From Chiloscyllium plagiosum (lineage: Eukaryota), in contig NC_057754.1 of assembly GCF_004010195.1 (NCBI RefSeq), forward strand, positions 6,153,971-6,173,970: a stretch of 20,000 nucleotides of DNA, given 5' to 3'. Shown in pieces: positions 1 through 20,000 of the stretch (the first letter of the stretch is position 1; each line of letters begins with the position of its first letter). The notes under the pieces are model-generated. The model ran no database searches and was not told the DNA's origin. It was given only the letters and a program-made list of their open reading frames with translations. The position numbers were made by a program, and so were the translations under genes.

Positions 1-410
1 GGGCTATTCAGCCCAAAGGGGCTATACTCTCTCCCTCTGGAGATGCTGCAAACCTGTCCCAATTCCCCTCCTATTTGCCCACATCCACCGAAATCTTTCC
101 TTAAAAATTAAAATTCCAAGTCTGTTTCAGAATACCTACTGAATCTGTGTCGTTCAGACTGTTCCTGATGCTCAGAACTTACTGAGTACAATAATATTCA
201 CATTTTCACTTTGTATTATTTGCCAATTACTTGAAAGTAGTTACTAAACGTTGTGATAGTGTTAACAATTCCTCTCTCTCCGCAAATTCAATATCTTGGA
301 ACCAGATCTGCACCAGGCCATGAATCACTGCTTCACCTTCTCAGCTCCAAGGACAATTATCTGTGCTTCAGCTTGCTCTCCACAAAACAGGAACACACCT
401 TAGTTTATTA
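1..410 (-). mobile_element. Old, highly degenerate CR1-like LINE 3' fragment
   Basis: The minus strand has CCTTGGAGCTGAGAAGGTGAAGCAGTGATT (SLEQRRLRGDL-like) and a CR1-type 3' UTR ending ...GGGCTGAATAGCCC. It is an inverted paralog of 13575-13999. Confidence 0.55.
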
Positions 411-413
411 ACG

Positions 414-1035
414 TCATAGACATGTACAGCACAGAAACAGAACTTCGGTCCAATTCATCCATGCCAACTAGGAATCCTAAACTACTGGAGTCGCATTTGC
501 CAGCTATTGGCCTATATCCATCAAACCCTTACTGTTCACGTACCCAATCAGATGCCTTTAAAAAATGTTGTGATTTCATCAGCCTCCACTACTTCATCTG
601 GCAGCTCATTCCATGCACACACCACATTCAGCTTGAAAACATTGCCCTTAGATTCCTTTTAAATCGTTGCCCTCTTAACCATGTGCTCTAGTTTTGGACC
701 CATCTAACCTCAGGAAAAAGAACCCTGGCTGCCCACCTTATCCATGGCCCTCGTGATTTTATAAATCTCCATGAAGTCACCTCTCAGTATTGGACTCTCC
801 AGGGAAATTAACCCCAGCCTATTCGGTCTCTCCCTGAATCCCAAATCCTCCAATCCTGGCAACGTTTTTGTGAATCTTGTCCGAACCTTTTCACATTTCA
901 CAACATCCTTACGAGAACAGGGAAATTCAAACTGAAAACAGAATTCCAGAAGTGGCTTAATCAACGTCCTGTCCAGCCACAGTATGACGTCCCAGCTTCT
1001 GTGTTCAATGCATTGACCAATAACGGAGAGCGTTA
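414..1035 (-). mobile_element. CR1 (shark HER1-type) LINE 3' end: ORF2 C-terminus and 3' UTR
   Basis: ORF 710-964 reads KPLLEFCFQF...RLGLISLESPILRGDFMEIYKI (CR1 RPHLEYCVQFW...RLRGDLIEVYKI). The 3' terminus CTGTTTCTGTGCTGTACATGTCTATG lies at about 414-440. Confidence 0.9.
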
Positions 1036-2705
1036 ATGGAGTCCCATTTGCCAGCGGTTCACCCTTATCCCTCTAAAGTCTTCCTCTTCATGTACCCAAT
1101 AAGGTGCCTTTTAAATGCTGCAATTGTACGAGCCTCCACCCCTTCCTCTGGCAGTTCACTCCATACTTGTAATGCCCTCAATATGAATAAGATGCCCCTT
1201 AGATCCCTTTTACATCTTTTCCATCTCACCTTAAGCCTGGACCCTGTAGTTCTGGACCCACTGAACTTGGGAAAAAGTCCCTGACTGCTCACCTTATCCA
1301 TGTCCTTCATGATTTTATAAGATCACCTCTCAGCCTCCAACTCTCCAGGGAAAACAGTCCCAGCCTATTCAGCATTTCCCATTAGCTCAAACCGTCCAAC
1401 CCTGGCAAAGTCCTTGCAAATGTTTTCTGAACCCTTTCAAGTTTCTCAACATTATTCCAAGAACAGGAAGATTGGAACTGAAAACAGAATTCCAGAAGGG
1501 CCTTAATCAGTGCCCTGTCCAGCCACAATATGATGTCACAACAGCTGCATTCAATGCATTGACTAATAACAGGGTGCGTACCAAATGCTGCATTCACTAC
1601 CCCGCCGACCTGTGACTATACTTTCAAGGAAATATAAACCTGCACTCCAAGGTCCCTTTGTTCAGCAATGTTCCCCAGGACTTTACCATTAATTGTATAA
1701 GTTCTGCCCTGATTTGCCTTTCCAAAATACAACAGCTTGCATTTATCTAAATTGAACTCCATCTGCCATTCCTTGCTCCAATGGCCCATCTGATCCAGAT
1801 CATATTGTATTCTGAACTAACCTTCTTCACTACCCACTACAACTCCAATTTTTGTGTCTTCTGTAAACGTACTGACCATACCTCATATTCACATCCAAGT
1901 CATTTATTTAAGGGCCCAATATCCATTCTTGCAGCACATTGCTGCTCACAGGCCTCCAGTCCGCAAAGCAACCCTCCATCATCCTCTGTCTGCTTCTTTC
2001 AAGGCAGTTTTGTAATGGCTTTGTCTCCCTGCATTCCATGTTATCTAACCCTGCTAACCAGTCTGCTTTGTGGAAACTTGTTGAATGTCCATATAAACAA
2101 CGTTCACAGCCTGGATTAATCAATTTTCTTTGTCACTTCAAAACATTCAGTCAAGTTAGTGACAGACAATTGCGCATGTACAAAGTCACACTGACTCTCC
2201 CTGATCATTCCTTACCTTTCGAAAATAGATGGATATCCTGTCCCTCAGAATCCCTTTCAACAACTTGCCTGCCACTGACTTCAGGCTCACTGTTTTCTTG
2301 TTCCATGGCCTCTCCTTACCACCTTTTTAAAAATAATGGCACCTCACCTGTCGCTATCAACGATACAAATACCTCAGGAGAGGCCCAACAATCACTTCCC
2401 TAGATTTCCATAAAGTTCCAGGGTACACCTGATCAGGTTCCAGGGCTTTATCCACCTTGATGTGATTTAAGACATCTAGTACCACCTCCTCTGTAACATG
2501 GACACTTTTCAAGTAATCACTGTTTCAAGTAATAACTCTTGAGCTTCCATATACTTCGCCAGTAAAAATGAAGTGAAATATTTGCATATTTTTCGCACAC
2601 CCTGTGGTTCCATAGACAGACTTGTTAACCTTTCAGAGGTCCTATTCTCTGGTCCAGTTAATCTTTTGTCAGTGATATATTTGTTTAATCTCTTTGGATT
2701 CTATT
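1036..2705 (-). mobile_element. CR1 LINE ORF2 (reverse transcriptase region), degenerate
   Basis: Frames include RQRMMEGCFADWRPVSSNVLQEWILGP (CR1 SGVPQGSVLGP), KLERVQKTFARTLPGLDGLS and VWSELPEEGVEARTIAAFKRHL, with many stops and frameshifts. It restarts at 1036 with sequence matching 486 onward. Confidence 0.9.
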
Positions 2706-2714
2706 CCAGGACAT

Positions 2715-2975
2715 CCCAGAAAGGCCTACTTCAAGGACCGTAATTTTCCTCTGACTTGATCAACAATGCCCTCCAACACATACNNNNNNNNNNNNNNNNN
2801 NNNNNNNNNNNNNNNNNNNNNNNNNNNNNNNNNNNCTTGACCCTCCCTTGCCGCCATGGGAAATGTAAAACGTGCTGCCACACCTCCCTCTGAACTCTGT
2901 CCAAGACCACAAAAGGATCTTTTCACATTAGGCAGAGATTTGCCTGCACATCCCAAAACCTCATATACAGCATCT
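2715..2975 (+). mobile_element. Penelope-like element fragment (RT-linker and start of GIY-YIG), spanning an N gap
   Basis: Before the gap it reads AYFKDRNF...NNALQHI. After the gap it reads TLPCRHGKCKTCCHTS and KGSFHIRQRFACTSQNLIYSI, the Cys-rich linker and GIY-like motif of Penelope elements. Confidence 0.8.
2784..2835. other. Assembly gap (52 N)
   Basis: Run of N. Confidence 1.
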
Positions 2976-3180
2976 GGACACTATGGGAAATATAATGTGG
3001 TTCATCCAACTAACCTACACATCTTTGGACTGTGGGAGGAAACTGGAACACCTGAAGGAAACCCTCACAAACACTGGTGAGAATGTGCCAACTTGAACAC
3101 AGGCAGTCGCCTGAGGCTGGAATCAAACCCAGGTCCCTGGTGCTGAGGAAGCAGCGCTAACCACTGAGTCACAATACTGT
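2972..3180 (-). mobile_element. HE1-type (V-SINE) tRNA-derived SINE, 5' and central part
   Basis: The minus strand has A-box-like TGACTCAGTGG, B-box-like GGTTTGATTCC and the core GTTTCCTCCCACAGTCCAAAGATGTG. Confidence 0.85.
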
Positions 3181-3248
3181 GGGATCTTTGCTGCTGATGC
3201 GCTGCCCCACTGATACCTCAGGAAATGAGGCAGGGTGAGTGACTAAGT

Positions 3249-3600
3249 GGCAGTGATGACAGAGTGACGTTATCGCTAGACAGTTAATCCAGAGACCCAG
3301 GTAACGTTGTGGGGACCCGGGTTTGAATCCCATCACGGCAGATTTTGGAACGTGAATTCAATAAATATCTGGGAAAAAATAATCTAGTGACGACAAGGAA
3401 TCCATTGTCAATTGTTGGAAAAACCATTGTGGTTCACCACGACCTTTAGGGAAGGACAATGCCATCCTTACCTGGTCTGGTCTGCATGGGACTCCAGACC
3501 TATAGCAACATGGTTGACTCTTAACTGCCCTCTGGGTAAACGCAGCAGTAAATGCTGGCCGAGCCAGTGACAGCCTTATCCTGTGAATGAATAAAGAAAA
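3249..3600 (+). mobile_element. SacSINE1-like tRNA-derived SINE, near full length
   Basis: B-box GGGTTTGAATCCC at 3319-3331, a central domain TGGTTCAC...CCTTTAGGGAAGG...GACTCCAGACC and a tail ...GTGAATGAATAAAGAAAA. Confidence 0.8.
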
Positions 3601-3609
3601 CAGGTCGGT

Positions 3610-5320
3610 GTTGTTCCTTCTCTAGTAGGTACATCCTACAAACTGAATCTGAAATATTCTCCTTCACACTGAACAAATACCTTTCCATCCAAGTCTTTAA
3701 CACCACCAACATATCTTCGGAGTGCTATAAAGTTAAAAACAACTTATCATTGCATCCATATTATTCTTACATATAACTGAGGTCTCCTGGTAAAATTGTG
3801 TCAATTCACCGGTGACTATTGGGAGGGACTCTAAAATACAATCCCAGTAAGATGGTCATCCCTTTCTTATTTCTCAGTACCAACCAAATAACTTGCCTGG
3901 ATGTACTCCCAGGAATATCGTCCCAAAGCCCAGCTATAATGTTATCCCTAACCAAAAACATCTCTCTCCCTGCTCTGTTGGCCCCTTTCTATCCTTGCTA
4001 TAGCATCTATACCCTGGAACATTAAGCTGTCAGTCCTATCCATTCCTGAGTGATGCCTCTGTAATTGCTATAATATCGCAGTCACATGTTCAAAACCATA
4101 TCCTGAGCTCACCTGCCTGACCTGTAAGGCCTCTTGCACTGAAATAAATGCAGTGCAACCGGTCCGTCGCACCTCATTCTGTGACTTGCTCTTGCCTGCC
4201 TTGACAGTCTGTCTGGTGAACAATACCAGCCTCAGACTCACCTCTTTTCTCACTATCTCTTTAGGATTACCCTGACTCCCTCACGGGTATAATGCCTCCC
4301 GAGTGGCATTAGCACATCTCCCTGCTCGTTAGGACCCCATGCTTTCCCCTTCCTATGCCATTGATACCAATGTACAATGTCCTCCCGCTGGTTATTTTCC
4401 CTTTTGAGAATAGTCTGCTCCCTCAGAGACATCATTGACACTGGCACCAAGCAGCACCATTCCATTCTGATGTCTCACTGTCAGCTGCAGAAACAGCAGA
4501 CTGTGCCCTTGAGTGGAGAGTCCCCTATCTCAATCGATCGTGTGGAACTGGATATACATCACATTATGTTAAAAGCCAGTCTCAGTACCAGTAACTTGGC
4601 TGTCAGTGCTACATTCCCCTGAGAGTTTATTATCACCTACATTTTCCAAAACGATACCCTTGCCTGAGATGGGGATAGCCACAGGAGACTCCTGCAGTAC
4701 CGACCTACCTCCCCTAGCTTTCCTGTCGGTAACCCATCTACCTGACTGTATCTGCAGTATCCTGCATTCCTGAGACTGCCCTATCACACCCCCCGGCTCC
4801 TGTCAATTCCTCACTGCCTTTGATCACTCCTCCACCAATCCATGTGATCCAATAGGATTAGCAATCACATTTGCTGCAGACATAATCATTAAGATCATTG
4901 AAACTCTCCCTAATCTCCCACATCCGAAAGGAACAGCCCCCCACTCTACAACTGACCATCTCTCCGCCTTAACAATCTACAAACCAAGACAAACGCACAG
5001 TCATAATGCTCGAAGAATACTGCCCGAGAAAACTTAATGCTTACGGTTCATATCTTAAACATTTAATCAAGAGACCCTCAGACATTAAAAAGAAATCCTC
5101 TCCTTACTCACGATTGTAGATTTAAGAAAATAAAACCAACTAAGATTGATATTTGAAGAGACTGAAACTCACTGAGCTGATCCCCGGCTCGGTGTACCTC
5201 CAAGGGCGCGGTCTCTCTGAGGGCAGCTGTGAAATGGCACTGTTTCTCTTCTCTGCCAACTCCGTTTCCAGAGAGGTTTTTAACTTCACAGCAAGTCAGC
5301 TCAGAGAGGGCACTGCTTGG
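3610..5320 (-). mobile_element. CR1 LINE 5' half: 5' UTR, ORF1 (Cys motif and SGNH/GDSL esterase) and ORF2 endonuclease start, degenerate
   Basis: The minus strand gives MWEIRESF..DYVCSKC (4860-4930), QESPVAIPIS...LSGECSTDSQV (ORF 4569-4787), IEIGDSPLKGT (about 4500-4540) and an endonuclease segment DWQLNVPGYR-like at 3850-4040. Confidence 0.8.
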
Positions 5321-5452
5321 TTTTATTCACTGGGGGTTGCCTTTGCTGCCCAGACCAGTATTTACTGACAACCTTTACTTGTCTTGGAGAAAGTGGTGGT
5401 TAACCGCCTCCATGAAATGCTGCAGTCCATGTACACCACAGTGATGTTTGGA
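5320..5452 (-). mobile_element. LINE 3' tail fragment related to the SacSINE1-type tail
   Basis: TTTTATTCACTGGGGGTTGCC...CCAGTATTTACTG...GAGAAAGTGGTGGT...CTGCAGTCCATG resembles the reverse complement of the tail at 3545-3600. Confidence 0.55.
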
Positions 5453-5715
5453 CAACAATCCCCCTCTGGCCCCACATCCCTCCCTGTCTCTGTAATCCCC
5501 CTCCGGCTTCAGAAATTACATGTCCGTGGCATAAGATTTTTATTTGGATTCATTTTTGTTTCATAACCCCCCCCTCTAAAAAAAAGTGAAATATTTGGCC
5601 CCAAACAAATTTCTGTTGATTAACCTTTCGGAGAGGCTGACACATGGACGCTGCAGAATTTTATCTCACATTATACACGTAGAATGATGGAACTTTCTTT
5701 TAAACATTGCTAAAA

Positions 5716-5990
5716 GGGAGGCAATGGCTTAATGGTATTTCTGCCAGATGAGTGATATGTGCAATGTTCCGAGGATTAGGGATAGAATCCCAACATGGCT
5801 GATGGTGGCATCGGAATTCAATACAATCTAGAATGAAAAGGCGAATGATGACCATGACACTATTGTCGGTTGTTAAATATCCATCTGGTTCACTAATGTC
5901 CTGTAGGAATGAAATGGTCATCCTCACCTTGTCTGGCCTACATGTGACTCCAGACCCACAGCAATGTGGTTAAATCAACTGCCCTCAGGA
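5716..5990 (+). mobile_element. SacSINE1-like SINE, 3' truncated
   Basis: CCATCTGGTTCACTAATGTCC...TCTGGCCTACATGTGACTCCAGACCCACAGCAATGTGGTT; homologous to 3249-3535. Confidence 0.8.
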
Positions 5991-6149
5991 AAAATACTTT
6001 AAAAACTGTTAACAAATATTCCGCAGGTATCACTTAACAGCTGGCTGTTCACATTGGGGACCATGTGAATATCTCAACGGCCTGAACTAAATTTGAGATT
6101 CAGCTTCACCTTCTCCCTGTCTCACATCAGTCTGTTTACACCCAACTCC

Positions 6150-6341
6150 AGAACACTCTCATTGAGCCAAGCAGTCCTCCCAGTTGTAGCCCTGTCATCT
6201 TCATTGTCTTCTCATGCCTACATTGCCCTCAGCCTCCTGTACTGTTCCAATGCATCTCAATGGGAGCTCAGGAACAGTACCTCATCTTTCAATTCAGCCC
6301 TTTGTAACCCCAGAGTCAACATGGACCTCAGCAGTTTCTAA
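6150..6341 (+). mobile_element. Penelope-like GIY-YIG C-terminal fragment
   Basis: SHAYIALSLLYCSNASQWEL, then after a frameshift EQYLIFQ...VNMDLSSF*, resembling LGLLHCSNEAQRKLEEQHLIFRLG...LNIEFSNF. Confidence 0.65.
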
Positions 6342-6344
6342 ATG

Positions 6345-6525
6345 AACAGACAGCTTTTCAGAAACTGGAACATTCCACCTGAAAAGGTATTGGAATTTGA
6401 GTCCAAAAGGAGTTTTAATGGGATGTTTGCAGGTAATTGAAAATGTGAAGTTTACAGGTTAGCATCATGAAGTGGATGGTTGGGTCTAAATCTGAGAGTT
6501 CTTACAAAGAGACGAGGTGTAATTT
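6345..6525 (+). mobile_element. Old CR1-like 3' fragment
   Basis: CAGAAACTGGAACATTCCACCTGAAAAGGTATTGGAA resembles RIWNALPERVVE, followed by a degenerate 3' UTR. Confidence 0.4.
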
Positions 6526-6539
6526 GGATAAATCTGTGT

Positions 6540-7345
6540 TCCCTCTCAGGCCAATACCTCCTTCCTCAGCTGCAAGGCACAGAACAGAGCACATACCCAA
6601 AGGGTGATCCAACCATGAATTTGCACATCTTTCTGCTTGACAAAAATATTGGAGATATCTTCTCACAAACACAACAAACGTTTCTCCTTCCACAGTTAAA
6701 TGCCAATGATATACAGATCCTGATGACTCCATTGACCGTAAAAACTTGCATTTGAGATCCCAGCCTCAATTGTTCTGATTTAATATCCTGCGAAATGAAT
6801 TCACAAAACAAAACTCTCAGTCAGTACAGGAAGAATATAAAGACATACTTTTTTCTTGGTATGTGCTTGATGTGGAAATGCCTCTCTTCAAGTTGCACGC
6901 CCCACCCATCATAGGAAGAGGACATGCACATGCGCCTCACTCTCTCTTGCCCCTAATAAAAATGGCGGCCATATCCCAGGACCTATCAACACCTGAGGGC
7001 CGCATCTGCTGCAAACGCGGGATTAAGAGTTTCTAATTCAGATTTACGAACCACACAGAGTGTAATTAAAACTTCCCAGTCTAAAGTGACTCATTATCTC
7101 CCCGTCTCTGAGGCCACTCTCCCCTTCCCTGTTTGCGTCTCCCACATTCACCAACGGCGGAGTCACGCAGCACTGCATCGGCTGGTTACTGTTGACGTGT
7201 CATCCCACTGGCCACGCCCCTCATTCACTCCCATTGTTTGGATGACCAGCTGGTTCCACGTGGTCCACCAGCCCCACCATGTTTTCCTATTGGTCCGAAG
7301 CTGCCATCAATCAGCTGGACCCCATTGTGAGGTCAGTGGTGGTAT
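6540..7345 (-). pseudogene. Decayed C2H2 zinc-finger gene 5' unit, copy 1 (promoter, putative first exon and intron, truncated second exon)
   Basis: Branchpoint TACTGAC (6826-6820), T-rich tract and acceptor TTTCGCAG|GATATT with the exon starting at 6787. It continues SSGSVYHWHLTVEGETFV, frameshifted to CCVCEK, with no His pair or further fingers. It matches my recollection of the 5' part of clustered shark ZNF genes. Confidence 0.6.
6915..7345 (-). promoter_or_regulatory. TATA-less housekeeping-type promoter motif cluster, copy 1
   Basis: NRF1-like TGCACATGCGC 6925-6935; YY1 AAAATGGCGGC 6959-6969; AP-1 TGACTCA 7087-7093; CRE-like TGACGT 7193-7198; Sp/KLF GCCACGCCCC 7211-7220; E-box CACGTG 7257-7262; CCAAT (ATTGG) 7289-7293. 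CpG is locally enriched. Confidence 0.65.
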
Positions 7346-7404
7346 CCTTCCCCTGTCTGAATCACACCCAGAAGGTGAATGGATAGTGTCAATCGGAAAC
7401 AACA

Positions 7405-7500
7405 AGCAGAAGGTGCTGGGAAATCTCAGCAGGTCTGGCAGTATCTGGGAACAGAAATCTGTCCAGTGGCCCTTCCTCAGAACCGATGGGAGCTGGGAAA
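7405..7500. mobile_element. Penelope-like terminal repeat remnant
   Basis: GCAGAAGGTGCTGGGAAATCTCAGCAGGTCTGGCAGTATCTG...CCCTTCCTCAGAAC. The minus strand keeps CTGAGGAAGGG, but the GAAAC half is deleted. Confidence 0.65.
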
Positions 7501-7706
7501 ATTAGAATCTTGACAGCATGGAAACAGGCTAATCGGCCCAAAACGTCCACAGCGTCCGTCCGAAGGGTATCACACCCAGACCCATTCCCCTACCCTATTA
7601 CTGTATATTTCTCCTAACTAATGCGCCTAACTGACATATCCCTGAATATTACGGGAAATTTAGCTTCGCCAATTCAACTAACCTACAGATCTTTGTATTG
7701 CAGGAG
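7501..7706 (-). mobile_element. HE1-type SINE, 3' half
   Basis: The minus strand reads CAAAGATCTGTAGGTTAGTTGAATTGGCGAAGCTAAATTTCCC...GGGGAATGGGTCTGGGTG...GGGCCGATTAGCCTGTTTCC...GATTCTA. Confidence 0.8.
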
Positions 7707-8230
7707 ATAGGGATTAAAGTGTAAATAACAGGGAAGGACAGAACCCAAAGAGAGACTGGAACATTTGGAAAGAAAAAGGAGTGGATTACGATCTGGCTGG
7801 GAGGGTGCACAGATGTTGATGGAGGGGACAGGAACCTGTGCCTGGCAGCATGTCAGTGGAGCTGGCAGAAATGGCGGCTGATGATCTACATTCTGCTACA
7901 AAAACAGACCCCGAGCGTCCAGCTGCCTGTCACTTTAATACACGAGCCTGTTCCCTGACCAACATCTCTATCTCATGCTTACTGTTGTGTTCCAGTCAAG
8001 CCAGAACATACCAAATGGCCCCGCATTTCAAGGACTGCAATTTCCCCTCCCATGTGGTCAATGCCATCCAATGTATCTCCTCAACTTCCTGCACCTCTGC
8101 CTTTGAAACCCACACCTCCAACTGCAACAAGGATAGAACCTCCCCCCCACCAAGTCCTTACCTTCCACCCAGATACAACACATCAGCCTCTGCCATTTCC
8201 ACCACCTACAATCAGACCGCACCACCAGAT
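7707..8230 (+). mobile_element. Rearranged Penelope-like fragments (GIY-YIG piece followed by RT-linker piece)
   Basis: ORF 7838-8236 contains DPERPAACHFNTRACSLTNISISCLLLCSSQA and QMAPHFKDCNFPSHVVNAIQCISSTSCTSAFETHTSNCNKDRT; another frame has VLTFHP. The purine-rich 7707-7870 part is probably an antisense 3' region. Confidence 0.8.
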
Positions 8231-8284
8231 TCTTAAGGGGTTTGACAGAATAAATACTGATGTGTCTGAGGGGAAATACTGAGA

Positions 8285-9190
8285 GGGGAGTCTGAAATCA
8301 GATTCTGAGCCAGTCACAGAATAAAGGGTTCTGCTTTGGATTCGTCAAGTTTAAGGTAACATAGGCATGGGTAAGTGGTTTCAGTAGCAATGGAGCAAGG
8401 GTGAAGAGGAAATAAGCAACGGTTTAGAGATTGGAATTCCTGGTGTTTGGGATTGTGTAGATGTCTAATCAGAAGGTCAGCTTCGCGTGAGATATAACAG
8501 CAGTATTGTGAAGAGTCTAGTTCTTCTCCATAGTTCCGAGTGAGAGGGAGAAGCTCAGCAGTAAGGGAAAGGAATTTGCCAGGCAACGGGTTTAACCACT
8601 ACAATGTTTCATTGGAGGGAACTGCACCTAATCGAGTAGTGATAGCTTGATAACTGAGTAACAGTGGAGTAATGGAGAGGGATGATGGGGAGGGAGAGCT
8701 GGGCATCGTCAGCGTACATGTGAAACCCAACATGGTACTTTTGCACAATGTCACCTCCTGGCAGAATGTAGGTGAGATAGAGTAGGGGCCAAGGATAGAT
8801 CCATGAGGGACACCAAATGCAAGGAATTCAGAAAGGAAAGGGACAGTGGAGATGGAGCAGGATTTTCCAAAAACCGTGAGGTCAAATGTCAGTTTTTCAC
8901 AAAATGGGAGAGAAGGACATAACCAGAAAACACAGAACAAGGAACAATGTCCGTGAATCGGTGAGGGGGACTGATGAGGAGCAGAAAAGAGAGTTGAAAA
9001 GTCTATGGTTTAGTGAGAATAGGATAAAGGGTCAAGATGAGCTCTGCTAAGGCTTGACATGAGATGAGATGGGAGATAGATGTTGGTTTGGACAAAAATC
9101 AGGAACACCACGTGAGGCAGTTTGGCTCCGTGGGCTAGTTGGAGGGAGGGAAGCAGCAGATCGGATTGTCTCAGTCTTAGTAACAGAGAA
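8285..9190 (-). mobile_element. L2/CR1-clade LINE reverse transcriptase fragment, degenerate
   Basis: GVPHGSILGP (ORF 8599-8940) and GFHMYADDAQLSL on the minus strand near 8690-8728. Confidence 0.8.
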
Positions 9191-9386
9191 AACAGAGGAC
9201 TGGCAGCTTCATGTTCTTGGGTATAGATGAAATGGAAAGGATAGAAAGGGGGACGAGAGGAGGCAGAATGGCGTTTTGTATTAGGGATACCTTTATGGTT
9301 GTGCTCAGGGAGGATATTATTGGGAGTATTTCCAGTGAAGTTATTTGGATGGAACTGGGAAATAAGAAAGGGATGATCACCTTGTT

Positions 9387-9622
9387 GTGGTTGTCTGCTT
9401 GGGTTTCGTCTGGTTGCTCTGGTTTCCTCCCACAGTCCAAAGATGTGTCGGATGGGTGGGTTCTCCAGGCTGAATTGCCCATAGTGTTCAGGGATGTGCT
9501 GGCCAGGTGGATTGCACATTGGAATTGCAACGTTATAGGGGTAGGGTAGAAGGCTCCGATGTTGAATGTGGATGTGATGGGCTGAATGGCCCGCTTCCAC
9601 GCTGTCTGGATTCTCTGATAAT
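9387..9622 (+). mobile_element. HE1-type SINE nested in CR1
   Basis: GCTCTGGTTTCCTCCCACAGTCCAAAGATGTG...ATGGGCTGAATGGCCCGCTTCCACGCTGTCTGGATTCT. Confidence 0.8.
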
Positions 9623-9774
9623 TCTACTAGCTTTAAAATAGTTACGGAAAATAGTAGACCAGATCTAATAGGAAGCCTTCTAAATTGGACAATTGTGATG
9701 GCACAAGGTAAAAACTTGCAAAACTTGTTTGCGGGAGGTTATTTCCAGGAAAATGGATGGCTGGAAAGGGGGAG

Positions 9775-10440
9775 CATAAGAACATAAGGAAGAGGAGCAG
9801 GAGTAAGCAATCTGGCCCCTCAAGCCTGCTCTGCGATTCAATAAGACCAGGGCTGATCTTTTCATCGCCTCAGCTCCACTTTCCTGCTCTTACTGGTAAC
9901 CCTCAATTGCTTTCCTGTTCAGAAATCTACCTTTTGCTTTAAAGACATTCAAGATGAAAGCCTCAGCTGCTTTACTCAGCAGCAAATTCCACAGATTCAC
10001 AACCCTTTAGCTGCAGAATTTCCTCCTGAACTCAGTCGTAAATCTCTCCACATACACCAACCCTCTCAACTACAGGCCCAAACGAGTGACCCTCATCTGC
10101 ACTCCCTCCAGTGCCAGTGCATCATTGCAGAAGTGAGGAGACCAAACCTGTACACAGTACTCCAGGTGTGGCCTCACCAGCACCCTGTGCATTTTTGTAG
10201 AATAAGTGGCATCACGTTTGCAGCTTGCCAATCTATTGGAACTGTCCCAGAGTCGAACAAATTTTATTGAATAATGACAAGAGCATTTGCGATTTTCCCC
10301 CGCCATCTCTGGGATGCATTCTATCAGGGCCAGGAGACTCATCTACCTTTGGACTCTTAGCTTTTTCAACAGTACCTCTTTAACTTAGAATGATTGATTG
10401 TTTTTGATGTCCACATCTACCAATGCCTCCATAGGCCTGT
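9775..10440 (-). mobile_element. CR1 LINE of a different subfamily, 3' end with internal deletions, nested
   Basis: ORF 10070-10342 has VLVRPHLEYCVQVWSPH..DALALEGVQMRVTRL. The tail is a TTCTTATG-type repeat (plus strand CATAAGAACATAAG at about 9775-9788). Confidence 0.85.
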
Positions 10441-11057
10441 GATAATGTGAGTACAGACACAGTATTTTCCTGTTCAGGCCAAGGCTGGTAGGTGTAGAGA
10501 ATGCTGCATGACTAGAGAAATTGAGACTCTGGTCAAGAAAATGAAGGAGGGATATGGCAGGTATGGAGAGCTGTGTTTGTGTGACTCCCTAGAGGAGTGT
10601 ACTCTCGGGAAACCAGGAGAGCAAAAAGAGGACATGGGATAGCTTGGGAACTTGGTTTCAGGAGAATCCAAAGAGATTAGACAAATATACTATGGACAAA
10701 AGAGTAACCAGGCAGAGAATAGCAACCCTCAAAAATCAGTAAGGCTGTCTATGGAACCGCAGTCGGTGGGAGAGATTCTGTAAGTATTTCACATCAGTTT
10801 TTACTGAAAAATGATATGAAAGCTAGAGAGTTGGGAGAAATAAATAGTGATAACTTGGCAATTATTCATATTATTGTGGAGGAGGTACTGGATGTCTTAA
10901 AAAGCAGAAAGGTGGATAAATCCCAGGGATCTGAGTAGGTGTATCCCAGAACTTTGTGGGAAGGCAGGGAAGTGATTGCTGGGCCCCTCGCTGAGATATT
11001 TGTATCATCGATTGCCACAGAAAAGGTGCTGGGAGATGGGTGCCATTATTTGAGAAA

Positions 11058-11194
11058 ATTAAAAATCACACACCAGGTTATAGTCAAACAGGTTTAATTG
11101 GAAGTGTGCTTCCAATTAAACTGGTTGTACTATAACCTGGCGTTGTGTGATTTCTAACTTTTTACACCCCAGTCCAACACTGATATCTCCAAAT
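11058..11194. mobile_element. Collapsed Penelope-like terminal inverted repeat (hairpin) with 14-bp target-site duplication
   Basis: Arms at 11063-11104 and 11109-11153 with loop TGTG. CATTATTTGAGAAA is duplicated at 11044-11057 and 11195-11208, splitting the CR1 PLFEKGSKEKPGNYRP coding stretch. Confidence 0.8.
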
Positions 11195-11468
11195 CATTAT
11201 TTGAGAAAGGTAGTAAGGAAAAGCCAGGGAACTATAGACCGGTGAGCCTGAAGTCAGTGGCAGGCAAGTTGTTGGAAGGGATTCTCAGGGACAGAATTTA
11301 CATGTCATTGGAAAGGCAAGAACAGATTAGGGATAGTCAGCATGGCTTTGTGCATGGAAGTCATTAACTTGGACTTGAGAAAGACACAAGGTTCCACATA
11401 ACAGGCTGGTTAGCAAGTTCAACACCACGGAATTAGCTATTTGGATACAAAATTGGTTGGAAGATCAA

Positions 11469-12544
11469 AGAGTCATAGATGTACAACACAGAAGCAGAGA
11501 CCCTTCGGTCCAACCAGCACATGCTGACCAGATATCCCAACACAATGTAGTCCCACCTGCCTGCACCCGGCCCATAACCTTGCTATTCATATACCCATCA
11601 AGATGCCTTATAAATGTTGCATTCGTCCTACCTCCATCACTTCCTCTGGCAGCTCATTCTATACTCGTACCACCTTCCGTGAAACAGTTTCCCCACAACT
11701 CTCTTCAAAGTCTTTCCCCTCTCACCCTAAATCAATGCCCTCTACTGCTGAGATCCACCACCCCAGGGAAGAGACTTTGTCTATCTATCCTATCCATACA
11801 CCTCATGATTTTATACACCTCTATAAGCTCACCTCTCAGCTTCTGACGCTCCAGGGAAAATAGCCCCAGTCTATTCAAAATCTATTCAACCCCCAGCTGA
11901 GCTCAAATCCTCCAATCCTGGTAACTTTCTTGTAAATCTTTTCTGAACCCTTTCAAGTTTCACAACATCCTTCTAATAGGAAGGAGACCAGATTTGTACG
12001 CAATATTCCAATAGTGGCCTCAACAATGCCCTGTACAGCCACAACATGACCTCCCAACTCCTGTACTTAATTTTCTAACCATATGCAGCCTTCACTATCC
12101 TATCTACCTGCGGCTCCACTTTCAAGGAGCTATGAACCTGCACTCCAAGGTCTCTTTGTTCAGTAACACTACTCAAGACCTTACCATTAAGTGTATAAGT
12201 CCTGCTAAGATTTGATTTCCCCAAATGCCATTCCTCAGCCCATTCACTCATCTGATCAAGATCCCGTTATACTCTGAGGTAATTGTTTTCACTGTCCACT
12301 ACACCTCCAACTTTGGTGTCATCTCACTAACTATGCCTGCTATGTTCACATCCAAGTCATTCATATAAATGACGAAAAATAGTGGATCCAGCACCGACAT
12401 TTGTGGCACTCCTCTGGACACAGGCCTCCAGTCTGAAAATCAACCTTCCACCACCACCCTCTATCTTCTGCCTTTGAGCGAGTTCTGGATCCCAATTGGT
12501 TAGTTCTCCCTGTATTCCATGAGCTCTATTCTTGCTGAGCAGTC
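11469..12544 (-). mobile_element. 5'-truncated CR1 nested in inverted orientation
   Basis: The 3' end is at about 11469 (AGAGTCATAGATGTACAACACAGAAG). It carries consensus-type LEYCVQI, and its 5' end reads RAHGIQGELTNW. Confidence 0.88.
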
Positions 12545-13574
12545 AGTGTCTTGGTGGAGGGTGCTTTTAGGACTGGAAGCCTGTGGTGAGCAAAATGATG
12601 TCAGGCTGGGTGTTGGGTCCACTGCTTATTGTCATTTATATCAATGATTTCCATGTGAATATAGGAGCTATGGTTAGTAGGTTTACAATAGACACCAACA
12701 TTTGAGGTGCAGTGGACAGTAAAATTACCTCAGCGTACAATGAGACTCCGATCAAATGGGCTGAGGAGTGGCAGATGAAGTTTAATTTTGATAAATGTGA
12801 GGTTCTGCATTTTGGAAAAGCAAATCAGGGCCTGACTTCTACACTTAATGGGAATGTCTTGGGCAGTGTTGCTGAACTAAGAGATCTTGGAGTGCACGTT
12901 CACAGTTCCTTGAAAGTGGAATCATAGATAGGCAGAGTAGTGAAGAAGCTGTTTAGTATTCTTGCCTTTGTCGGTCAGTGCATTGAGTCCAGGAGTTGTG
13001 ACGTCATTTTGCGGCTGTAGAGGACATTGATTCAGTCACTTCTGGAATTCTGTTTTCAGTCCTGGTCTCCCCACTATCGGAATGATATTGTGAAACTTGA
13101 AAGGATTCAGAAAAGATGTGCAAAGACGTTGCCAGGGTTGAGGGATTGAGCTATAGGGAGAGGCTGAATAGGCTGAGGCTGTTTTCACTGGAGAATCGGA
13201 TGCTGAGGGGTGACCATAGAGGTTGATAAAATCGTGAGGGGCATGGATAAGTCAAACAGCTAGGGTCTTATTCCTGTTTAGGTGAGTCCAAAACTAGAAA
13301 GCACAGGCGTGAGGGAAAAGATTAAAAAGGCATATTAGGGGCAAAGTTTCAAGCTGAACGTGGTATGTGTATGGAATAAGCTGCCAGAGAAAGTGTGGAG
13401 GCTGGTACAGTTAGAACATTTAAAAGGCATCTCACTGGATATGTGATTGGGAAAGGGTTAGAAGGTTATGGGCCAAGTGCTGGCATATGGGACGAGATTA
13501 ATTTAGGATATCTGGTCGGCGTGGACAATTTGGACTGAAGGGTCTGTTTCTATGCTGTACATCTCTATGGCACT

Positions 13575-14040
13575 AATAAATTAAAATTGAGGTAGGTTTC
13601 TCTTTTATGGAGAGTTAGCAGAAGGTCAGACAATTCTCCTTGGAGCTGAGAAGGTTAAGCAGTAATTTCGAACAGGAGTTGATTTATTTCCAGGATATTT
13701 CATTTACAGAGAGACAGTGAGAAATTTTTAACATCACAATTTTTAGTAACTATTTTCAGGTAACTGGCAACTAATGCAGTTTAAAAATGTGAAGATTATT
13801 TTACTCACTAAGTTCTGAGCATCTGGAACAGTTTGAAAGACAGCTGGATGCAGATTCAGTAGTTATTGTCAAAACAAATTTGAAATTTAACATTTTTAAG
13901 GAAAGATTTGGAGGGCTATGTCCAAATGGGAGGTGAGTTGGGACTGACTGGCACCATCTTCAGAGGGAGAGAGTACAGCCCCAATGGGCAGAATAGCCCC
14001 CAGCCCATGTGCTCTGTGATAATGACCTATTGACTGTGAA
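13575..14040 (+). mobile_element. Old CR1-like 3' fragment (paralog of 1-410)
   Basis: TTCTCCTTGGAGCTGAGAAGGTTAAG (FSLELRRL) and a degenerate 3' UTR ending ATGGGCAGAATAGCCCC. Confidence 0.55.
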
Positions 14041-14450: not shown

Positions 14451-14518
14451 CCTGGGAGGATCCCACCACTCAGGTCACAATGGGGCCTTGGCTGATTGAC
14501 ACAGCTTCAGACCAATAG
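14451..14518 (+). promoter_or_regulatory. Third, more diverged copy of the promoter module (distal end only, cut by the gap)
   Basis: GGGAGGATCCCACCACTCAGGTCACAATGGGGCCTTGGCTGATTGACACAGCTTCAGACCAATAG aligns with 17560-17624 GGGAGGATCCCACCACTGACCTCACAATGGGCTCCAGCTGATTGATGGCAGCTTCGGACCAATAG. CCAAT is at 14512-14516. Confidence 0.75.
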
Positions 14519-15018
14519 NNNNNNNNNNNNNNNNNNNNNNNNNNNNNNNNNNNNNNNNNNNNNNNNNNNNNNNNNNNNNNNNNNNNNNNNNNNNNNNNNN
14601 NNNNNNNNNNNNNNNNNNNNNNNNNNNNNNNNNNNNNNNNNNNNNNNNNNNNNNNNNNNNNNNNNNNNNNNNNNNNNNNNNNNNNNNNNNNNNNNNNNNN
14701 NNNNNNNNNNNNNNNNNNNNNNNNNNNNNNNNNNNNNNNNNNNNNNNNNNNNNNNNNNNNNNNNNNNNNNNNNNNNNNNNNNNNNNNNNNNNNNNNNNNN
14801 NNNNNNNNNNNNNNNNNNNNNNNNNNNNNNNNNNNNNNNNNNNNNNNNNNNNNNNNNNNNNNNNNNNNNNNNNNNNNNNNNNNNNNNNNNNNNNNNNNNN
14901 NNNNNNNNNNNNNNNNNNNNNNNNNNNNNNNNNNNNNNNNNNNNNNNNNNNNNNNNNNNNNNNNNNNNNNNNNNNNNNNNNNNNNNNNNNNNNNNNNNNN
15001 NNNNNNNNNNNNNNNNNN
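14519..15018. other. Assembly gap (500 N, probably a placeholder length)
   Basis: Run of exactly 500 N. Confidence 1.
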
Positions 15019-15600: not shown

Positions 15601-15760
15601 AGTCGTTTGTTTTAATAGTTTGGATAAAAGTTAAATACATTAGGTTTGTTCACTCACTTTAAATATCATTTAGCCAGGTTTTGTTTCTTTGTGAAACACT
15701 GTTCATCATCCTGTCTCCTCCATCCTTCTCTCCAACAACAAGAGTTTGGAGCACATGGAA

Positions 15761-16615
15761 TTTCTCTGTCACTAAGACTGAGATAATCCGATCTGTTGCT
15801 TTCCTCCCTCCCACTAGCCCACTGAGTCAAACTGCCTCACGTGGTGTTCGCGGTTTTTGTCGTAAACTTACGTCTTCCTCCAGTCTCTTGTCAAGCCTTA
15901 TCAGAGCTCACCTTGACCCTTACCCTAATTTCACTGAACTATAGACTTTCCAACTCTCTTTCCTCCTCCTCCTCATCCGTCCCCCTCACCGATTCACAGA
16001 TATTATTCCTTGTTCTGTCTTTTCTGGTTATGTCCTTCTCTTCCAAAATCCTGCTCCATCTCCACTCTCCCTTTCCTTTCTGAATTCCTTGCATTTAGTG
16101 TCCTTGGTCCCTTCTGTATCTCACGTACATACTGCCAGGAGGTGACATTGTGCAAAAGTACCATGTTGGGTTTCACTGACGATGCCCAGCTCTCCCTCCC
16201 CATCATCCCTCTCCATTACTCCACTGTTACTCAGTTATCAAACTGCTTACCACATTCCCACTCCTCGATTAGGTGCAGTTTCCTCCAATGAAACATTGTA
16301 GTGGTTAAACCCGTTGCCTGACAAATTCCTTTCCCTTACTGCTGAGCCTCTCTCTCTCACTGGGAACTATGCAACAGAACTACACTCTTCACAGTATTGC
16401 AGTTATATCTGACGCGAAGCTGACCTTCTGATCAGACATCTACACAATCCCAAACACCAGGAATTCCAATCTCTTAAACGTTGCTTGTGTCCTCCTCACC
16501 CCAGCTCCATTGCTACTGAAACCCCTGACCGGTGTCGGTGTTGCCTTAAACTTGACGAATCCGAAACCGAACCCTTGATTCTGTGAATCACTCAGAATCT
16601 GGTTTCAAACTCCCC
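15761..16615 (+). mobile_element. L2/CR1-clade RT fragment (paralog of 8285-9190)
   Basis: SVLGP...GFTDDAQLSL in ORF 16010-16291, with an 8-nt deletion through the YADD codons relative to the left copy. Confidence 0.8.
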
Positions 16616-16671
16616 CCTCAGTATTTACCCTCCGACACATCAGTATTTATTCTGTCAAACCCCTTAAGAAT

Positions 16672-17204
16672 TTGGTGGTGCGGTCTGATTGTAGCTGGTG
16701 GAAATGACAGAGGATGATGTGTTGTATCTGAGTGGAAGGTAAGGACTTGGGGGGGATGTTCTATCCTTGTTGCAGTTGGAGGTGTGGGTTTCAAAGGCAG
16801 AGGTGCGGGAAGTGGAGAAGATATAGTGGATGGTATTGACCACATGGGAGGGGAAATTGCAGTCCTTGGAATACGGGGTCATTTGGTATGTTCTGGCCTC
16901 ACTGGAACACTGCAGTAAGCATGAGACAGAGATGTTGGCCAGGGAACAGGCTTGTGTGTTAAAGTGGCAGGCAGCTGGAAGCTCGGTGTCTGTTTTTGCA
17001 GCAGAACATAGATCATCAGTCGCCATTTCCGCCACCTCCACTGAGATGCTGCCAGACACAGGTTCCTGTCCCCTCCATTAACAGCTATGCACCACCCCCC
17101 CCCCCCCCCCCAGCCCAGATCGTAATCCACTCCTTTGTCTTTCCAAATGTTCTGGTCTCTCTTTGGGTTCTGTCCCTCCCTATTATTTACACTTTAACCC
17201 CTAT
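16672..17204 (-). mobile_element. Penelope-like fragments (paralog of 7707-8230)
   Basis: ORF 16664-17059 has ELPAACHFNTQACSLANISVSCLLQCSSEA...KDCNFPSHVV. Confidence 0.8.
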
Positions 17205-17510
17205 CTCCTGCAGTACAAAGACCTGCAGGTTAGTTGAATTGGCCAAGCTAAATTTCCCATAATGTTCAGGGATGTGTAGGTTAGGTATATTAGTCAGGAG
17301 AAATATACAGTAATAGGGTAGGGGAATGGGTCTGGGTGGGATACCCTTCGGAGGCACACTGTGGACTTTTTGGGCCGAGTGGCCTGTTTCAATGTTGTCA
17401 GGATTCTAATTTTCCCAGCTCCCATCGGTTCTGAGGAAGAGCCACTGGACAGATTTCTGTTCCCAGATGCTGCCAGACCTCCTGAGCTTTCCCAGCACCT
17501 TCTGCTTGTT
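17205..17510 (+). mobile_element. HE1-type SINE 3' half (17205-17410) plus Penelope terminal remnant (17411-17510); paralog of 7405-7706
   Basis: GCAGGTTAGTTGAATTGGCCAAGCTAAATTTCCCATA...GGGCCGAGTGGCCTGTTTC...GGATTCTA, then GTTCTGAGGAAGAGCC...CAGATGCTGCCAGACC. Confidence 0.78.
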
Positions 17511-17557
17511 GTTCCTGATTGACACCATCCATACACCTTCTGGGTGTGATTCAGACA

Positions 17558-17985
17558 GGGGGAGGATCCCACCACTGACCTCACAATGGGCTCCAGCTGA
17601 TTGATGGCAGCTTCGGACCAATAGGAAAAGGTGGTGGGACTGGTGGACCAAGTGGGACCAGCTGGTCATCCAAACAATGGGAGTGAATGAGGGTCGTGGC
17701 CAGTGGGATGACACGTCACCAGTAACCCAGCCGATGCAGTGCCACATGACTCGGGCATTGGTGAATGTGGGAGACACAAACAGGAAAGGGGAGATAATGA
17801 GTCACTTTAGACTGGGAAGTTTTAGTTACACTCTGTGTGGTTCGTATGTCTGAATTAGAATCTCTTAGTCCTGCGTTTGCAGCAGATGGGAAAACGGCTG
17901 CGGCCCTCAGGTGGTGATAGGTCCTGGGATATGGCCGCTATCTTTATTAGGGGCAAGGTACAGTGAGGCGCATGTGCATGTCCCC
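17558..17985 (+). promoter_or_regulatory. Promoter motif cluster, copy 2 (partly eroded)
   Basis: Retained: CCAAT 17618-17622, ACACGTCA 17711-17718, AP-1 TGAGTCA 17798-17804, NRF1-like GCGCATGTGCA 17968-17978. The YY1, Sp/KLF and E-box sites are mutated relative to copy 1. Confidence 0.6.
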
Positions 17986-18380
17986 TCCCTAGGATGGGGT
18001 GCGGGGGGCGGGGTTGTGCAACTTGAAGAGAGGCATTTACACATCAAGCACATACCAAGAAAAAAGTATGTCTTTATATTCTTCCTGCACTGACTGTGAG
18101 TTTTGTTTTGTGAATTCATTTCATAGGATATTAAATCAGAATAATTGAGGCTGGGATCTCAAAAGCAAATTTTTACGATCAATGGAGTCATCAGGATCTG
18201 AATTATCATTGGCATTTAACTGTGGAAGGAGAAAGGTTTGTCTGTTCTATTTGTGGGATAATGTCTCCAATATTTTTGTCAAGCAGAAAGATGTACAAAT
18301 TCATGGTTGGATCACCCTTTGGGTATGTGCTCTGTTCTGGGCCCTGCAGCTGAGGAAGGAGATATTGGCCTGAGAGGAAG
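17558..18380 (+). pseudogene. Decayed C2H2 zinc-finger gene 5' unit, copy 2
   Basis: Branchpoint CACTGAC 18088-18094 and acceptor TTTCATAG|GATATT with the exon starting at 18127. The frame from 18222 reads VEGERFVCSICGIMSPIF, the N-terminal half of a C2H2 finger with no His pair. Confidence 0.6.
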
Positions 18381-18574
18381 CACAGATTTATCCAAATTAC
18401 ACCTCGTCTCTTTGTGAGAACTCTCAGATTTAGACCCAATCACCCACTTCATGATGTTAACCAGTAAACTTCATATTTTCAATTACCTGTAAACTTCCCA
18501 TTAAAAGTCCTTTTGGACAAAAAATCCAGCGCCTTTTCAGGTGGAATGTTCCAGCTTCTGACAACTGTCTGTTC

Positions 18575-18770
18575 ATTCAGAAACTGCTGACGTCCATGTT
18601 GACTCTGGGGTTACAAAGGTCTGAATTGAAAGATGAGGTGCTATTCCTGAGCTCCCATTGAGATGCATTGGAATAGTACAGGAGGCTGAGGGCAGTGTAG
18701 GTGTGAGCAGACAATGAAAATGACAGGGCTGCACTGTGAGGGCTACTTGGATCAATGAGAGTGTTTTGGA
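18575..18770 (-). mobile_element. Penelope-like GIY-YIG C-terminal fragment (paralog of 6150-6341)
   Basis: Reverse complement match to 6150-6341. Confidence 0.62.
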
Positions 18771-18924
18771 GTTGGGTGTAAACAGAGTGAGGTGGGACAG
18801 GGAGAAGGTGAAGCTGAAAGTCCGTTTTAGTTCAGGCCGTTCAGAAATTCACCGTCCCAAAGGGAACAGCCAGTTTTTAAGTGATACCTGCGGAGTATTT
18901 GTTAACAGTTTTTAAAGTACTTTT

Positions 18925-19203
18925 CTGAGGGCAGTTGAGAGTTTACCACATTGCTGTAGGTCTGGAGTCACATGTAGGACAGACCAGGTGAGGATGACCG
19001 TTTCCTTCCCGACAGGACATTAGTGAACCAGAAGGGTTTCTAACAATTGACAAAATGGTTTCATGGTCATCATTCGCCATTTCATTATAGATTGTATTGA
19101 ATTCCGATACCACCATCAGCCATGTTGGGATTCTAACCCTAATCCTCGGAACACTGTACATATCACTCATCTGGCACGAATACCATTAAGCCATTGCCTC
19201 CCT
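18925..19203 (-). mobile_element. SacSINE1-like SINE (paralog of 5716-5990)
   Basis: CCACATTGCTGTAGGTCTGGAGTCACATGTAGG...GGACATTAGTGAACCAGA. Confidence 0.8.
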
Positions 19204-19469
19204 TCATAGCAATGTTTAAAAGAAAGTTCCATCATTCTACGAGTACAATTTGAGATAAAATACTGCAACGTCCATGTGTCAGCCTCTCCAAAAAGTCAAT
19301 CAAAAGAACATTTTGGGGGGGCGAAATATTTCACTTTTTTTTTTGGGGGGGGGGGCGTTATTAAACAAAAACGAATCCAGATAAAAAATCTTATGCCATG
19401 GACATGTAATTTCTGAGGCCGGAGGGGGATTACAGAGACAGGGAGGGTTGTGGAGCCAGAGAGGGATTA

Positions 19470-20000
19470 TTGTCCAAACATCACTGTGGTGTACATGGAC
19501 TGCAGCATTTCAGGGAGGCGGTTAACCACCGCTTTCTCAAAGACAAGTAAAGGCGGCCAATAAATACTGGTCTGGGCAACAAAGGCAGCCCCCAGTGAAT
19601 AAAACCAAGCAGTGACCCCTCTGAGTTGACTTGCTGTGAAGTTAAAAACCTCTCTGGAAATGGAGTGGGAAGAGAAGAGAAACAGTGACATTTCACAGCT
19701 GGCCTCAGAGAGACCACACCCTTGGAAGTACTCAGAGCCGGGGATCAGCTAAGTGAGTTTCAGTCTCTTCAAATATCAATATTAGTCGGTTTTATTTTAT
19801 TAAATCTACAATAGTGAGTAAGGTGAGGATTTCTTTTTAATGTCTTCCGGTCTCTTGATTAAATGTTTAAGATATGAACCGTAAGCATTAAGTTATTCTA
19901 GGGCAGTATTTTTCGAGCAATAAGACTGTGCCTTTGTCTTGGTCTGTAGATTGTTAAGGCGGAGAGATGACCTGTTGTAGAGTGGTGTGCTGTTCCTGTC
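19470..20000 (+). mobile_element. LINE tail fragment (19470-19605) followed by CR1 5' UTR and ORF1 start (paralog of 4926-5452)
   Basis: Reverse complement match to 4926-5452. Confidence 0.65.

Follow-up and report, generated by a model that had tools for sequence, protein, structure and literature searches.

The window, which is the whole 20,000-nt stretch of DNA analysed here, contains no intact ZNF gene in its 20 kb. It appears to hold two copies of one repeat family and the start of a third, and each of the two copies comprises a promoter-like block, an exon and a decayed zinc finger. The features are as follows.

3310-3580, minus strand: downstream exon formed from the tail of an old repeat in antisense orientation, with an AG at 3582-3581; the 3' end is provisional
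4926-9242, minus strand: copy-1 arm of an inverted segmental duplication; the partner arm leaves the window, so the lower end is provisional
6581-6679, minus strand: decayed finger of copy 1, in which a 4-nt deletion takes the first Cys; second Cys at 6667, His at 6617, next Cys at 6593
6680-6787, minus strand: 108-nt exon like that of a zinc-finger gene; donor GT at 6679-6678, weaker in copy 1 with a C at -1
6788-6848, minus strand: intron 3' end with a candidate branchpoint, a T-rich tract and an AG at 6789-6788; four RNA reads leave here
6849-7351, minus strand: promoter-like motif block of copy 1, with seven motif classes; the 5' boundary of the family lies near 7351-7357
14454-14518, plus strand: start of a third motif block, more diverged (80-82%); the assembly gap begins directly after its CCAAT
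14519-15018: assembly gap of 500 N between the two arms
15708-20000, plus strand: copy-2 arm, extending past the window
17560-18065, plus strand: promoter-like block of copy 2, with four of the seven motif classes
18127-18235, plus strand: 109-nt exon of copy 2, with one extra base; donor GT at 18236, with a G at -1
18236-18328, plus strand: decayed finger of copy 2, with FVCSICG intact, His at 18302 and next Cys at 18326

The two copies belong to an inverted duplication with arms at 4926-9242 and 20000-15708 (87.3% identity); it is at least 4.3 kb long, runs past the window end and takes in about 1.9 kb of flanking sequence upstream. An assembly artefact was ruled out as its source, the arms being about 9% different with many indels. 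The two copies of the cassette differ at 62 of 835 positions (7.4%), against 310 of 3333 (9.3%) in the flanks (p = 0.09), and the excess conservation of the cassette over the arms is thus not significant. Divergence between the arms is lowest in the exon (6 differences in 108 positions), a value not significantly under the roughly 9% seen in the flanks. Among the repeats listed (25 of 50 inverted pairs), none of the terminal direct or inverted kind frames the unit, and Rfam and tRNA scans gave no matches. Frames at 6070-6340, 7820-8236 and 8600-9000 are, as we presume, Penelope-like and L2-like remnants, for which Pfam gave no support at these positions; these frames were copied together with the cassette in the duplication. 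Elsewhere in the window, two old LINE-like fragments form an inverted pair at 11477-13564, lying face to face at 67% identity, and LINE-like 3' fragments form a tandem pair at 483-1579, about 550 nt apart and 74% alike. The third block start at 14454-14518 adjoins a truncated LINE-like fragment.

Seven motif classes had been named for the promoter-like block in an earlier note on this DNA. All seven were found in copy 1 (CCAAT at 7293, E-box at 7262, Sp/KLF at 7219, CRE-like at 7202, AP-1 at 7093, YY1 at 6966 and NRF1-like at 6935), and just four of the seven are retained in copy 2. More than two classes occurred in none of 326 background windows and more than four in none of 2000 shuffles, although these figures are biased by patterns that were written post hoc. 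The word at 6966 in copy 1 is one that we take to be of the YY1 type, and an opposite-facing word near 7005 in the contigs of the family (see below), presumably also YY1-like, is deleted in copy 1 and mutated in copy 2, as judged from contig loose ends at 7003. If these motif identities are assumed, the opposed words at 6966 and about 7005 are arranged as in two-way promoters.

The block is followed by acceptors at 6788/6787 on the minus strand and 18126/18127 on the plus strand. In copy 1, the reading frame is open from an ATG in the exon to EGE-x-FV, after which the 4 nt are lost. Copy 2, in which VEGERFVCSICG is located at 18222-18257, had been regarded as the clear version; the (E)GE-x-F-V-C-x2-C-G segment is indeed legible there, but an extra base between the ATG and the EGE segment breaks the frame. 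An open frame running from the start codon through the fingers is therefore absent, with independent frameshifts in the two copies, and both copies are dead, through different lesions. Two further possibilities, an intron of 61 nt beginning at 6848 and a donor at 6940, have no support from any read or joint shown.

According to the available text of PMC5363842, C2H2 fingers follow the pattern C-x2-4-C-x12-H-x3-4-H. In the cassette, the distance from the second Cys to the last His is 47 nt against the expected 48, and an Asp occupies the position of the first His; a W-x-C follows the His at linker spacing, leaving what reads as one decayed finger plus the beginning of another at near-canonical spacing. 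The cassette thus departs from a C2H2 finger in its 47-nt spacing, in the Asp for the first His and, in copy 1, in the deletion of the first Cys; a second Cys pair, C-x3-C, is present in copy 1 only. Of the 1267 TGY sites, 142 have the His and 9 also the Cys, while the full pattern, which was defined post hoc, is found at two, namely the cassette copies. No full C2H2 motif occurs in the cassette; the sole full-pattern match in six frames lies at 13842, across two stop codons. Neither TGEKP linkers nor a tandem array were found in the six frames of the window, where the linker spacing alone survives. The earlier statement that no His-x3-His or TGEKP array follows the exon holds for the array and TGEKP, but it was too strong, since the decayed His and the W-x-C do follow. 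Contig loose ends at 6674 read C-S-V-C-G-K-I-F, with the Phe kept three residues past the second Cys.

Protein searches gave faint signals. A PDB search returned four weak matches (three of them SALL4/HIC2; E 0.9-6.4), none of which is significant, and the top match is to something other than a zinc finger; the linker and cysteines of the finger are the part covered in the two SALL4 alignments shown. The downstream half gave no PDB match. Pfam zf-C2H2 was absent from the 28 and 12 frames scanned, as was the KRAB domain from the 40 frames scanned, a subset of the frames of the window; KRAB-box families have reportedly been lost in cartilaginous fishes (PMC8455134, available text). Protein word searches, which are weak for a 47-aa query, recovered no finger-bearing paralogue, and an Atlas search with the natural frame gave no usable match. 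Two protein-search matches were dismissed as repetitive proteins without finger motifs. Overall, judged from the sequence, a zinc-finger ancestry of the exon is likely.

The share of the words of the window present in any one sequencing run was 0.20 at most, and the sequence data described below therefore come from relatives. Of the 24 runs listed, four were aligned, as contigs or reads, to 5995-7395 at 80% likeness, a threshold below which copies, among which intact genes might be, are invisible. The results showed that all 30 bins of this region were covered in three runs from related organisms (X1, X9 and X18), with 505 and 788 contigs aligned in X1 and X9, respectively. The summed depth was 207-13518 in X1 and 408-33051 in X9, whereas 11 of 16 listed long pieces had a depth of 3-20; summed depth is itself not a copy number, and we infer from these data a copy number in the hundreds. 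Such repeat-like depth bears out the earlier proposal that the cassette is amplified. The upper boundary that had been assigned to the block is also about right: from bins 7311-7357 to bins 7358-7395, the depth fell from 33051 to 1171 in X9 and from 800 to 207 in X1, and this fall above 7357 coincides with the start of the third-copy alignment at 7351. At the other end, long contig pieces are unbroken across 6203-6642 and 6205-6635. A solo-LTR end near 6400 was ruled out, as contigs pass through it.

The earlier note had placed the loss of the finger array in the local copies. In contrast, contigs at least 80% alike run on beyond the cysteines colinear with the window, and the depth downstream is of the same order as that over the exon. 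Near relatives that are colinear past the cysteines would be fingerless too, and the array was therefore probably lost before amplification, as far as such colinearity can tell. The indels of copy 1 near 6674 and 7003 are missing from the contig loose ends shown, which places copy 2 nearer to the family than copy 1. X18 contigs that align just over 6681-6723/6748 indicate more distant relatives. A 24-nt motif of the exon gave no matches in viral and metagenome contigs.

The exon is also found in RNA. In X21, a poly(A) single-cell RNA run from a related organism (A), of which about 2% was read, 19 reads stacked on 6653-6793; four of them leave at 6788 and ten at 6681, both being canonical splice ends. 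The four reads show that the acceptor predicted at 6787 is in use in a relative, and a spliced polyadenylated RNA carrying the exon of the dead gene is present, in a related organism only. The onward letters of the reads leaving at 6681 match window positions 3552-3581 at 29 of 30 letters, starting at the AG after a T-rich tract. Other copies of this downstream repeat in the window are 71-75% alike, and the chance of a 29/30 match is about 0.001 at 73% likeness and about 0.2 at 90% (p values); the match favours this unit or one of its sister copies as the source, short of proving the locus. The source may be a sister copy, the donor of copy 1 being weakened. A change at 6772 was present in seven of seven reads, the same as in copy 2, and the exon version in the reads has an early stop in all three frames. 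No single read can span both junctions, which we infer to lie on one transcript. Furthermore, in X18 (organism C; its RNA status is a guess), the exon is the most deeply covered part (89-356 versus 3-81), and five contigs leave at 6681, their consensus having 17 of 30 letters in common with that of X21 (p about 2e-4 to 2e-3).

For the upstream exon in the X21 reads, no counterpart was found in the window, the best score of 22 lying within the 20-28 range of shuffles, and no X21 reads in the orientation of the exon lie over 6794-7395. A likeness by eye of the first-exon end of the reads to the block near 6935 proved no better than shuffles. Speculatively, the missing first exon could sit in the 500-N gap, upstream of the 18127 exon. 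The suggestion that the cassette survives as a lncRNA promoter thus divides: a surviving non-coding transcript is plausible, but the motif block as driver of this RNA is not supported by reads whose first exon has no counterpart in the window. Given the few reads and a library that is possibly end-biased, a promoter role of the block for the RNA is unsupported, being neither backed nor refuted by the reads.

The repeat at 3310-3580 that carries the downstream exon is one that we take to be old and SINE/LINE-like. When the copy-1 exon is joined to the 3580 exon, the ATG inside the former opens a 91-codon frame across the junction; among database proteins of 40-128 aa, none has as many as three 5-residue words in common with the downstream 73 aa. 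The spliced RNA is probably non-coding. The putative 3.1-kb intron contains, at 3640-5200, a decayed LINE-like element oriented as the transcript, presumably a CR1 with ORF1-like words near 4878 and 4375.

We lean, with modest confidence, towards the view that this locus is a fingerless C2H2 gene head that became an amplified repeat family and was reused as an internal, probably non-coding RNA exon. On this view, what the window preserves is the front of a C2H2 zinc-finger gene whose fingers were lost before the remaining unit multiplied, along with adjoining transposon fragments, into a repeat family of related shark-type genomes. The old exon would now be internal in some copies at least, entered at acceptor 6787 and left at donor 6680 before the first cysteine pair; splicing onward to the antisense-repeat exon at 3580, 3.1 kb away, would turn the finger remnant into intron. 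Intact genes presumably have a Met where copy 2 has an Arg, before F-V-C, as in the consensus given in the earlier note; if so, a single T-to-G change would remove that Met codon and create the -1 G of the donor. Most likely, the amplified zinc-finger pseudogene unit is ordinary gene-family debris with a small twist. If true, this would be a tidy example of a dead zinc-finger gene head that spread as a repeat and was rewired into the non-coding RNA of sharks, and it would give a sequence with which the zinc-finger clusters of sharks could be mapped. This locus encodes no finger and lends no support to the idea of a KRAB-like system of transposon control, on which it would bear only if finger-bearing relatives were found.

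An alternative is that the cassette is the common head or promoter of many intact multi-finger genes and that the array was lost in the local copies only. The dense motif block of copy 1, the presumed YY1-like word near 7005 retained in family contigs, and the more distant relatives implied by the short X18 alignments are consistent with this. Large ZNF counts in sharks would also fit, with 703-3586 ZNF ORFs across six shark assemblies in the supplement of PMC10547256, in whose main text, as available, six shark-related words occur zero times. We nevertheless consider this alternative unlikely, since the depth over the exon and that past the cysteines are of a similar order, the long pieces are colinear there, and X21 has neither exon-oriented reads at 6794-7395 nor an upstream exon that matches the window.

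It is slightly more doubtful still that the cassette is a non-autonomous transposon or anonymous repeat, possibly with a captured gene fragment, whose RNA reflects cryptic splice sites and read-through noise. The finger geometry argues against this, as do the apparent use of the same donor in two organisms, the upstream flank of about 1.9 kb inside the local duplication and the lack of framing terminal repeats among those listed (25 of 50 inverted pairs); the repeat-like depth, the sharp common boundary near 7355, the failure to find a protein homologue and the non-significant conservation excess are all compatible with it. That the spliced RNA is itself functional, as a conserved multi-copy lncRNA or as a small-protein message from the ATG of the exon, is improbable: the 91-codon frame, a type of junction present in organism A and probably also in C, and the low divergence of the exon between the arms (6/108) would suit it, but the 73-aa part has no match among 40-128-aa proteins, copy 2 is frameshifted in the 91-codon frame, copy 1 has the weaker donor, and 6/108 is not significantly under the flank rate of about 9%. 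A long shot of the same kind is that sharks selectively keep a large family of spliced RNAs descended from the head of a dead zinc-finger gene, a single base change having replaced the finger exon by exons of transposon origin; the products of this family would be regulatory RNAs or proteins of about 90 residues and might tune the parent zinc-finger clusters.

Returning to the fingerless gene head, the cassette does not belong to the intact C2H2 or KRAB-ZFP genes, and no description of such an amplified family was found in the open-access literature searched. The locus would resemble the FiNZ-ZNF genes, described in PMC10547256 together with a correlation between ZNFs and transposons, in being part of a lineage-specific ZNF expansion outside tetrapods, but those genes have a conserved domain plus fingers and tested repression, whereas no finger is encoded here. 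Like the transposon-derived exons of vertebrate lncRNAs (PMC3636048), the downstream exon is repeat-borne and uses a T-rich antisense tail as acceptor; nothing about it is unusual, and its repeat class is a presumed one. Pseudogene-derived lncRNAs likewise keep an exon of a dead gene, and possibly its regulatory parts, in a spliced RNA; those compared are single conserved mammalian loci, unlike the multi-copy family here, in which no conservation or function was seen. A further likeness is to the decayed units of mammalian KZFP clusters, which are duplicated zinc-finger units, many of them coding-compromised and some first classed as a repeat family; those units are built from a KRAB exon and finger arrays, whereas the shark-type unit described here has neither and carries just one and a half decayed fingers.
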